A stretch of 64,000 bases of DNA from NCBI RefSeq assembly GCF_058153355.1, contig NZ_CM177019.1, one strand, 5' to 3'. The position numbers were made by a program, and so were the translations under genes. Within the stretch, counting starts at the first letter, position 1. Each line of letters opens with the position of its first letter. The notes below the pieces were generated by a model. It ran no database searches. It was not told the origin of the DNA and was given only the letters and a program-made list of their open reading frames with translations. Shown piece after piece: positions 4,314 through 5,418 of the stretch.

Positions 4314-4564
4314 AATATAAATTCCTGCTTATTGTATTTCTTCATACTACCTGAACAGGTCGTTAATCAGAATTGCGAGCCTGTACCACAACCTGCACTA
4401 AACCACTGCAACAGCTGTTGAAAAGCCGGAATGTACTCTTTATTGCAAACATTTCAGGGATGAAGTGAAGATGAATTGAGACGTAATATCCACACCAAGC
4501 CGGCGTTATCCGGTGAGGCGCAATGTTGCGGGGGCTTTATCCCTGGTGGCATTGGTTGCTGGAA

Positions 4565-4630
4565 AGAGAAAACCCCCGCACGTTGAGAGGTAAAACCTGA
4601 CAACAGAACGGGGGCTAATCTTGAACCATC
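4565..4630 (-). ncRNA. rdl: Rdl antisense RNA (antitoxin of Ldr), copy 1; approximate ends
   Basis: Minus-strand sequence ...aagattagcccccgttctgttgtcaggtttt/acctctcaacgtgcgggggttttctct matches my recollection of rdl RNAs, antisense to the ldr 5' leader. Ends not verified. Confidence 0.5.
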
Positions 4631-4680
4631 AACAATTCAAGAATAGCCGCAAAATGTTGTCATTACAACAAGGCGGCTAT

Positions 4681-4788
4681 ATGACGCTCGCGCAGTTTGC
4701 CATGACTTTCTGGCACGACCTGGCAGCACCGATCCTGGCGGGGATTATTACCGCAGTGATTGTCAGCTGGTGGCGTAACCGGAAGTAA
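4681..4788 (+). CDS. ldr: Small toxic membrane peptide Ldr (35 aa), copy 1
   Basis: ATG 4681 to TAA 4786-4788 encodes MTLAQFAMTFWHDLAAPILAGIITAVIVSWWRNRK; below the ORF-track size cutoff, found by reading the sequence. Confidence 0.85.
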   Translation: MTLAQFAMTFWHDLAAPILAGIITAVIVSWWRNRK

Positions 4789-4837
4789 GGTGAAAACGGG
4801 CGTCAGGCTGCCGTGATGGCAATATGCGCCCGAAACC

Positions 4838-4869
4838 GGCCGCAGGGGTAACAGCCTGCGGCCCTTTTT
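4838..4869 (+). terminator. Rho-independent terminator of ldr copy 1
   Basis: Perfect 9-bp stem ggccgcagg/cctgcggcc with 8-nt loop followed by cttttt. Confidence 0.75.
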
Positions 4870-5100
4870 GTCTTTATCTCTTCTGCAAATAAATATTGGC
4901 AACCCGAGCTGGAAGCATCATCCAGAGCACTCATGAAACGACTGTAACAACTGTTGAAAAACCGGAATGCACTCTTCATTGCAAACATTTCAGGGATGAA
5001 GTGAAGATGAATTGAGACGTAGTATCCACACCAAGCCGGCGTTATCCGGTGAGGCGCAATGTTGCGGGGGCTCTATCCCTGGTGGCATTGGTTGCTGGAA

Positions 5101-5166
5101 AGAGAAAACCCCCGCACGTTGAGAGGTACAACCTGACAACAGAACGGGGGCTAATCTTGAAACCAG
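5101..5166 (-). ncRNA. rdl: Rdl antisense RNA, copy 2; approximate ends
   Basis: Same motif as copy 1 at the equivalent offset upstream of the second ldr. Confidence 0.5.
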
Positions 5167-5215
5167 ACACTTCAAGAATAGCCGCAAAATGTTGTCATTA
5201 CAACAAGGCGGCTAT

Positions 5216-5323
5216 ATGACGCTCGCGCAGTTTGCCATGACTTTCTGGCACGACCTGGCAGCACCGATCCTGGCGGGAATTATTACCGCAGCGATTGTCA
5301 GCTGGTGGCGTAACCGGAAGTAA
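5216..5323 (+). CDS. ldr: Small toxic membrane peptide Ldr (35 aa), copy 2
   Basis: ATG 5216 to TAA 5321-5323; MTLAQFAMTFWHDLAAPILAGIITAAIVSWWRNRK (A26 instead of V26 in copy 1). Confidence 0.85.
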   Translation: MTLAQFAMTFWHDLAAPILAGIITAAIVSWWRNRK

Positions 5324-5372
5324 GGTGAAAACGGGCGTCAGGCTGCCGTGATGGCAATATGCGCCCGAAACC

Positions 5373-5404
5373 GGCCGCAGGGGTAACAGCCTGCGGCCTT
5401 TTTT
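5373..5404 (+). terminator. Rho-independent terminator of ldr copy 2
   Basis: Same 9-bp stem as copy 1 followed by a T-run. Confidence 0.75.
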
Positions 5405-5418
5405 GTATCCGGCCCCAT

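Follow-up and report, generated by a model that had tools for sequence, protein, structure and literature searches.

Introduction

Toxin-antitoxin modules of the LDR family are known from Escherichia coli K-12 MG1655, in which ldrA/rdlA, ldrB/rdlB and ldrC/rdlC lie between kdsA and chaA, while the experimentally characterised LDR-D (ldrD-rdlD) occupies the bcsG-yhjV locus. Overproduced LdrD is lethal to E. coli, an effect that RdlD relieves (PMC4147584, PMC8167048), LdrA is known to be toxic on overproduction too and brings about a drop in ATP within 2 minutes (PMC8309996), and RNase III-dependent double-stranded RNA of about 21 nt is reported from the rdlD/ldrD overlap (PMC7373196). Gerdes and Wagner proposed that translation of ldr depends on a leader open reading frame (ORF), ldrX, which is blocked by Rdl (PMC4147584, PMC8167048, PMC8309996). 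The Ldr genes have evolved by lineage-specific duplications and losses (PMC2887945). Here the region between chaA and kdsA was analysed in a stretch of 64,000 nucleotides from contig NZ_CM177019.1 of RefSeq assembly GCF_058153355.1 (the whole stretch is referred to as the window), in which two LDR units stand at the site that holds three in K-12.

Similar tandem layouts are known from other type I systems. The Ibs/Sib and Zor/Orz arrays likewise consist of tandem toxin/antisense units in one intergenic region with a strain-variable copy number (PMC2887945), but their toxins and RNAs are unrelated to those of Ldr/Rdl and their antisense geometry is different. The hok/sok system (with mok) is described by reviews as having a long 5' leader, an antisense RNA that lies off the toxin start and a coupled leader ORF, an arrangement that has been proposed likewise for ldr.

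Two intact LDR units between chaA and kdsA

We read the locus as two tandem, intact LDR modules at the three-copy site of K-12, representing the two-copy allele of a common polymorphism, for which an indirect, hok/sok-like ldrX mechanism is the most likely mode of control; the probability that we assign to this reading is roughly 0.93. On their sequence, both units are ordinary intact members of the LDR family, that is, Ldr/Rdl type I toxin-antitoxin modules of an already known kind. The homology and anatomy of the units, their copy-number distribution and their allele frequencies are direct observations of this analysis.

A preliminary description of the window had placed two tandem repeats with a period of 535 bp between chaA and kdsA and had set them against three copies in K-12. 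The direct-repeat search and the ORFs of the flanking genes agree with the first statement, and the MG1655 annotation with the second. The tandem direct repeat spans positions 4365-5406 of the window with a period of 535/536 bp on self-comparison: 4365-4625 matches 4901-5161 at 90% identity with a spacing of 536, and 4632-4871 matches 5167-5406 at 98% identity with a spacing of 535. Repeats about 500 bp long that are 90-98% identical lie far outside chance expectation. Tandem Repeats Finder reported no repeat across the locus, because its longest period is 500, shorter than the 535/536 unit. The units and their neighbours are as follows.

3175..4275, plus strand: chaA, Na+/K+:H+ antiporter, left flank (ORF; annotated chaA in NZ_CM148325.1, 99.3% identical, and in K-12)
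4365..4900, plus strand: LDR unit 1 (W1), adjoining chaA (direct-repeat families; 95.9% identical to K-12 LDR-C)
4901..5406, plus strand: LDR unit 2 (W2), adjoining kdsA (direct repeat; 96.3% identical to K-12 LDR-A)
5487..6341, minus strand: kdsA, right flank (ORF; annotation in K-12 and in the close relative)

Each unit holds a 35-codon Ldr ORF, a full-length Rdl on the opposite strand and terminator hairpins for both transcripts. Homology to the K-12 LDR family, on which the preliminary description had made its assignment depend, is evident from 90-96% identity to LDR-A/B/C and from identical flanking genes, and the locus, unit length, gene order and strands are those of K-12. In an alignment of the 535-bp units, the nearest K-12 relatives are LDR-C for W1 (95.9%) and LDR-A for W2 (96.3%), and the window is without a counterpart of the middle unit of K-12. 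The chaA-kdsA intergenic region of the window measures 1,211 bp, as against 1,729 bp for that of K-12, and the length gap is 518 bp rather than 535 bp largely because of a 15-bp insertion (5438-5452) in the window. This insertion (AATGGACTGACCCAT), relative to K-12, lies in the loop of a hairpin that separates unit 2 from the kdsA stop, and it is common to the window and the closest complete genome.

Between themselves, W1 and W2 are 89.6% identical in the alignment of 535-bp units, and 24 of the differences fall within the first 125 bp. From the putative -10 hexamer to the terminator only 11 positions differ; six of these 11 are within the 66-nt Rdl overlap, five being placed at the Rdl 5' end (4626-4631), which is a larger difference between the units than the one at toxin residue 26.

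The pairing of W1 with LDR-C and of W2 with LDR-A is broken at the T9/I9 codon and at the Rdl 5' end, where the nearest K-12 unit to W1 is A and W2 is like C and B; among W1, W2 and the K-12 units, most of the remaining differences are private to a single unit. A single recombination breakpoint was sought between W1, W2 and K-12 C, B and A, and none could be named, the informative sites being mosaic and most differences private. The mosaic sites fit unequal crossing-over or gene conversion between repeats, by either of which, acting between the 535-bp units, the two-copy state may have arisen; they lend support to the earlier suggestion that the difference in copy number is consistent with recombination between the repeats.

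Copy number at the locus in Escherichia

To place the two-copy state, a census query of 3,042 bp with long flanks was compared with 5,426 complete E. coli genomes, and 60 of the 5,440 census records were sampled at even steps down the ranking. The sample held two copies in 17 records, one copy in 14 and three or more in 28, including K-12 and BL21; a single record had nothing matching at the locus. At least 80% of the census query was covered in 2,834 of the 5,426 genomes, which corresponds to one or two copies, while 3,924 genomes gave a match to a probe for the inter-unit junction (4866-4950), corresponding to at least two. Combined, these figures give an estimate, not a full count, of about 27% of the complete E. 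coli genomes with one copy or none, about 25% with two and about 48% with three or more. An earlier E. coli search was unable to separate copy numbers, one- and three-copy genomes both giving more than 80% coverage; nor are junction matches per genome a copy count, as K-12-like three-copy arrays gave one match at megablast stringency.

Across the locus, the window is collinear with its two closest complete genomes at 99.3% and 99.1% identity, and each of these has two Ldr genes. Two units are also found between chaA and kdsA in Escherichia sp. E1V33, a cryptic-clade sister species, and one unit in E. coli E69. When one genome per species was scanned for the exact motif, only 6 stretches were obtained, too few for an ancestral copy number. 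Two copies are thus a common and ordinary E. coli allele. The single copy of the adherent-invasive E. coli strain NRG857c was suspected by its authors to be an assembly error (PMC7232551); the census suggests that low copy counts at chaA-kdsA are real alleles and not necessarily assembly errors, and it is of modest practical value for judging low counts that have been suspected in print on this ground (PMC7232551).

Variation was also seen at the other LDR site. In E. coli SCPM-O-B-8794 and Escherichia sp. E1V33, the LdrD-type bcsG-yhjV locus occurs as a tandem duplication with a period of about 484 bp (L004 8060-8790, L006 3753-4482), so that both LDR sites of the genus vary in copy number. 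In the two-copy E. coli NZ_CP142919.1, an IS200C element is inserted within the chaA-kdsA LDR region. An Escherichia-type LdrD ORF together with a full-length rdlD match was found on NZ_JABWSY010000055.1, a contig of 503 bp and low coverage that is labelled Bacillus sp., and is probably assembly contamination.

Ldr peptides and the residue 26 difference

The 35-codon ldr ORFs that had been placed at 4681-4788 and 5216-5323 were recovered by translation and by Pfam.

4681..4788, plus strand: ldr-1 toxin ORF, 35 aa, V26 allele (translation; Pfam PF13940, 89.2 bits)
5216..5323, plus strand: ldr-2 toxin ORF, 35 aa, A26 allele (translation; Pfam PF13940, 89.9 bits)

Both peptides match residues 1-35 of the 35-position PF13940 Ldr_toxin profile (cutoff 27 bits), the sole family reported by Pfam for either, and no NCBIfam model matches either peptide. 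The translation of ldr-1 is MTLAQFAMTFWHDLAAPILAGIITAVIVSWWRNRK and that of ldr-2 is MTLAQFAMTFWHDLAAPILAGIITAAIVSWWRNRK, the latter ending in ...TAAIVSWWRNRK. Residue 26 is the sole difference, and it lies within the hydrophobic stretch LAAPILAGIITA(V/A)IVSWW, so that the translations uphold the single V26 versus A26 difference that had been assigned to the hydrophobic or transmembrane part of the toxin. The V26 peptide of W1 aligns over residues 1-35 with the nuclear magnetic resonance structure of LdrD, 5LBJ (E 5e-11).

Neither allele is confined to the window. The exact V26 sequence occurs on at least 999 contigs, where it is named LdrA/LdrC by the sources, as well as in the chaA-adjoining unit of the closest relative, and the exact A26 sequence, to which public databases already give the name Ldr, is found on at least 1000 contigs. 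The V26/A26 polymorphism is not unusual and V26 is widespread; valine for alanine is a conservative change at this residue, and we infer that it is neutral. The peptides of K-12 LDR-A/B/C are one or two residues from those of the window, which combines T9 with S29 and, in W1, has V26. In comparison, LDR-D shares the architecture of the window units and differs from them in its chromosomal locus, in its ORF DNA (about 68% identical) and in a substantially different peptide.

Antisense RNAs, terminators and promoter candidates

The antisense, rdl-like region of each repeat, with the 3' end given for it in the preliminary description, was recognised at full length by the Rfam model RF01813 (rdlD), whose gathering score is 50. 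A terminator had been described for each repeat, and in agreement a hairpin with a T-run is predicted 3' of each ldr and each rdl.

4567..4632, minus strand: rdl-1 antisense RNA, 66 nt, 5' tail UUGAUGG (Rfam RF01813, 83.6 bits)
5103..5168, minus strand: rdl-2 antisense RNA, 66 nt, 5' tail GUCUGGU (Rfam RF01813, 90.1 bits)
4838..4870, plus strand: predicted ldr-1 intrinsic terminator, 9-bp GC-rich stem and T-run (hairpin 4838-4863)
5373..5405, plus strand: predicted ldr-2 intrinsic terminator, hairpin and T-run (hairpin 5373-5398)
4591-4572, minus strand: predicted rdl-1 terminator hairpin
5127-5108, minus strand: predicted rdl-2 terminator hairpin
4484..4489, plus strand: candidate -10 hexamer of ldr-1, TAATAT (an inference from TAnnAT, conserved in A/B/C-type and D-type units)
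5020..5025, plus strand: candidate -10 hexamer of ldr-2, TAGTAT (on the same ground)

Both Rdl RNAs end 3' in ...GCGGGGGUUUUCU, and each lies 49-114 nt upstream of its ldr ATG on the opposite strand. The long hairpin expected of such RNAs was obtained for both, at -27.3 kcal/mol (z -4.5) for rdl-1 and -26.7 kcal/mol (z -4.55) for rdl-2. Differences between Rdl-1 and Rdl-2 are confined to the first 7 nt and to loop position 40. The tail UUGAUGG of W1 is absent from K-12, in which LDR-A has a third tail type. On manual inspection upstream of the ldr genes, the TAnnAT hexamer is conserved and no convincing -35 element accompanies it; we claim no transcription start.

Leader ORFs and predicted fold-back of the ldr mRNA

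The long leader upstream of each ldr gene contains two ORFs, of which the second begins inside the Rdl target.

4523..4600, plus strand: 25-codon leader ORF of unit 1 (MLRGLYPWWHWLLERENPRTLRGKT), with GAGG four bases upstream (ORF list)
5059..5136, plus strand: 25-codon leader ORF of unit 2 (ORF list; conserved block)
4621..4680, plus strand: ldrX-like leader ORF of unit 1, TTG start inside the Rdl target, in frame with ldr
5157..5219, plus strand: ldrX-like leader ORF of unit 2, TTG start, 20 codons, with a TGA stop that overlaps the start codon of ldr (ATGA)

The block of the 25-codon ORF (MLRGLYPWWHWLLERENPRTLRG..) is nearly invariant in all 16 of the 16 units examined, LDR-D included, and either coding or RNA structure may account for its conservation. 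As for the ldrX-like ORFs, the frame differs between W1 and W2 because of a 1-nt indel (an insertion at 4628 relative to unit 2). In unit 1 the leader ORF and ldr form one frame, a 55-codon ORF at 4621-4788; the in-frame form is found in W1, in the first unit of the close relative and in K-12 LDR-D, whereas W2 and K-12 LDR-A, -B and -C have the 20-codon form with the ATGA overlap, and in this respect W1 is unlike the K-12 units of the same locus. To judge by its sequence, the ATGA overlap of W2 is a translational-coupling arrangement. W1 is, by analogy, not read as defective, because the experimentally studied LDR-D has the in-frame arrangement too.

In the minimum free energy folds of both putative mRNAs, and in the RNAalifold consensus of 16 units, the region of the ldr Shine-Dalgarno sequence and AUG (about 4660-4697) pairs with about 4798-4832 in the 3' untranslated region (UTR); the leader segment GGCGCA (4517-4522) also pairs with this 3' UTR block in the same folds, and unit 2 is alike. 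This predicted pairing of the start region with the 3' UTR resembles the fold-back inhibition of hok. Between A/B/C-type and D-type units, conservation amounts to 95.6% in the leader, 91.3% in the 3' UTR block and 67.7% in the ORF. Such conservation of leader and 3' UTR above that of the ORF points to a probable constraint at the RNA level.

Proposed mode of control

Each unit would give rise to two transcripts: from the plus strand an ldr mRNA, in which a long 5' leader precedes the coding sequence of a 35-aa hydrophobic toxin of the inner membrane, and from the minus strand a 66-nt Rdl, fully complementary to the middle of the ldr leader. The Rdl target excludes the ldr Shine-Dalgarno sequence and AUG, and it includes a G-rich stretch and the TTG start of the ldrX-like ORF. 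An indirect, hok/sok-like mechanism is most likely because Rdl covers the start of the leader ORF and not the ldr Shine-Dalgarno sequence and AUG: pairing of Rdl would block translation of the leader ORF, and with it the coupled, or ribosome-unfolded, translation of ldr, and the duplex of Rdl and leader may serve as an RNase III substrate.

The likeness to hok/sok is one of layout. The toxin family is unrelated, the window peptides belonging to PF13940 and not to Hok_Gef. The Rfam sok model RF01794 scores 27-28 bits across the plus-strand ldr leaders at 4530-4683 and 5066-5218, against a gathering score of 59. These sok matches are too weak for homology and, read from the sequence, place the units outside hok/sok while echoing a hok-like layout.

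Several points weigh against this reading. Transcription, toxicity and the ldrX-coupled mechanism are taken over from the literature or from prediction, and the coupling through ldrX is itself described by reviews as unconfirmed (PMC4147584, PMC8309996). A sigma-70 consensus scan found no promoter for the ldr or rdl of either unit. The W1 leader ORF continues in frame into ldr instead of being ATGA-coupled to it. As to the fold-back, a compensatory change was found in 2 of 102 predicted pairs and the long-range helices are invariant, so that covariation speaks neither for nor against it.

Alternative readings of the locus

The two-unit count itself could be an artefact of assembly, in which three or more true units were reduced by the collapse of a middle 535-bp unit. 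Repeats that are 90-98% identical and longer than short reads are open to this error, which, as said, was suspected for the single copy of AIEC NRG857c by its authors (PMC7232551). Against it stand the two-copy arrays of about a quarter of complete E. coli genomes, the two closest relatives included, the two-copy state of the sister species Escherichia sp. E1V33, and the clear distinction of W1 from W2 (24 positions differ within the first 125 bp, and the Rdl 5' tails are unlike), and we hold a collapse to be very improbable. Marginally more improbable still is that the units are decaying, non-functional LDR relics, a view to which the failure to detect a consensus promoter and the frequent dispensability of chromosomal type I loci would lend themselves; the ORFs and terminators are intact, the Rdl matches span the whole model at scores far higher than the gathering score, and the 91-96% conservation of leader and 3' UTR relative to LdrD-type units, with only 68% in the ORF, argues for continued constraint.

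Of greater interest, if still unlikely, is that the two units embody different specificities, each Rdl repressing mainly its own ldr, and that changes in copy number reshuffle old alleles. Rdl-1 and Rdl-2 are identical except for the first 7 nt and loop position 40, and eight E. coli A/B/C-type units have 22 variable columns, 6 of which are found within 14 columns at the Rdl 5' end (hypergeometric P about 4e-5, for a 14-column window chosen after seeing the data). The UUGAUGG and GUCUGGU tails are found in E. coli as well as in Escherichia sp. E1V33, and both tail types are old because they are common to the latter; discrimination between cognate and non-cognate partners is documented in the tandem Sib/Ibs family (PMC2943612). 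Yet about 58 of 66 nt are complementary in non-cognate pairs, which may well suffice for cross-repression, and the clustered differences could reflect one or two conversion or indel events instead of selection. The fuller form of this idea, in which variation among LDR units concentrates in the single-stranded 5' tail and loop of Rdl and at the start of the leader ORF, functionally distinct specificity alleles are shuffled by unequal crossing-over, and the in-frame ORF of W1 could yield a 55-aa, N-terminally extended Ldr isoform, appears somewhat more doubtful again. The clustering at the Rdl 5' end makes cross-talk between Rdl and ldr worth a cheap experiment.

For the two-copy LDR allele that we prefer, the practical consequence is one of annotation: 35-codon toxin ORFs and Rdl RNAs are easily overlooked by gene callers, and recording both is useful. 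Beyond correct annotation, the locus is of little consequence.

Other observations in the window

Complete genomes represent the source lineage poorly. Identity to the window segments 1-25000, 25001-50000 and 50001-64000 does not exceed 99.0% in any complete RefSeq E. coli, and in most it lies at 95-99%. Between cvrA (41098-42834) and dadX (45101-46171), the interval 42900-45000 holds a 132-aa ORF, for which there was no Pfam match, and a leucine-rich-repeat protein of 470 aa (43521-44933). Coverage of the enclosing 25-kb stretch is only 90% in the next-best complete E. coli genomes listed, a figure that applies to the whole of that stretch and not to the cvrA-dadX segment specifically, and in strain N96 the leucine-rich-repeat gene is truncated beside an IS66 element. 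Apart from the Rdl matches, the sole Rfam family above threshold in the window was the small RNA C0299 (RF00119, 104 bits), at 54343-54421 on the minus strand.

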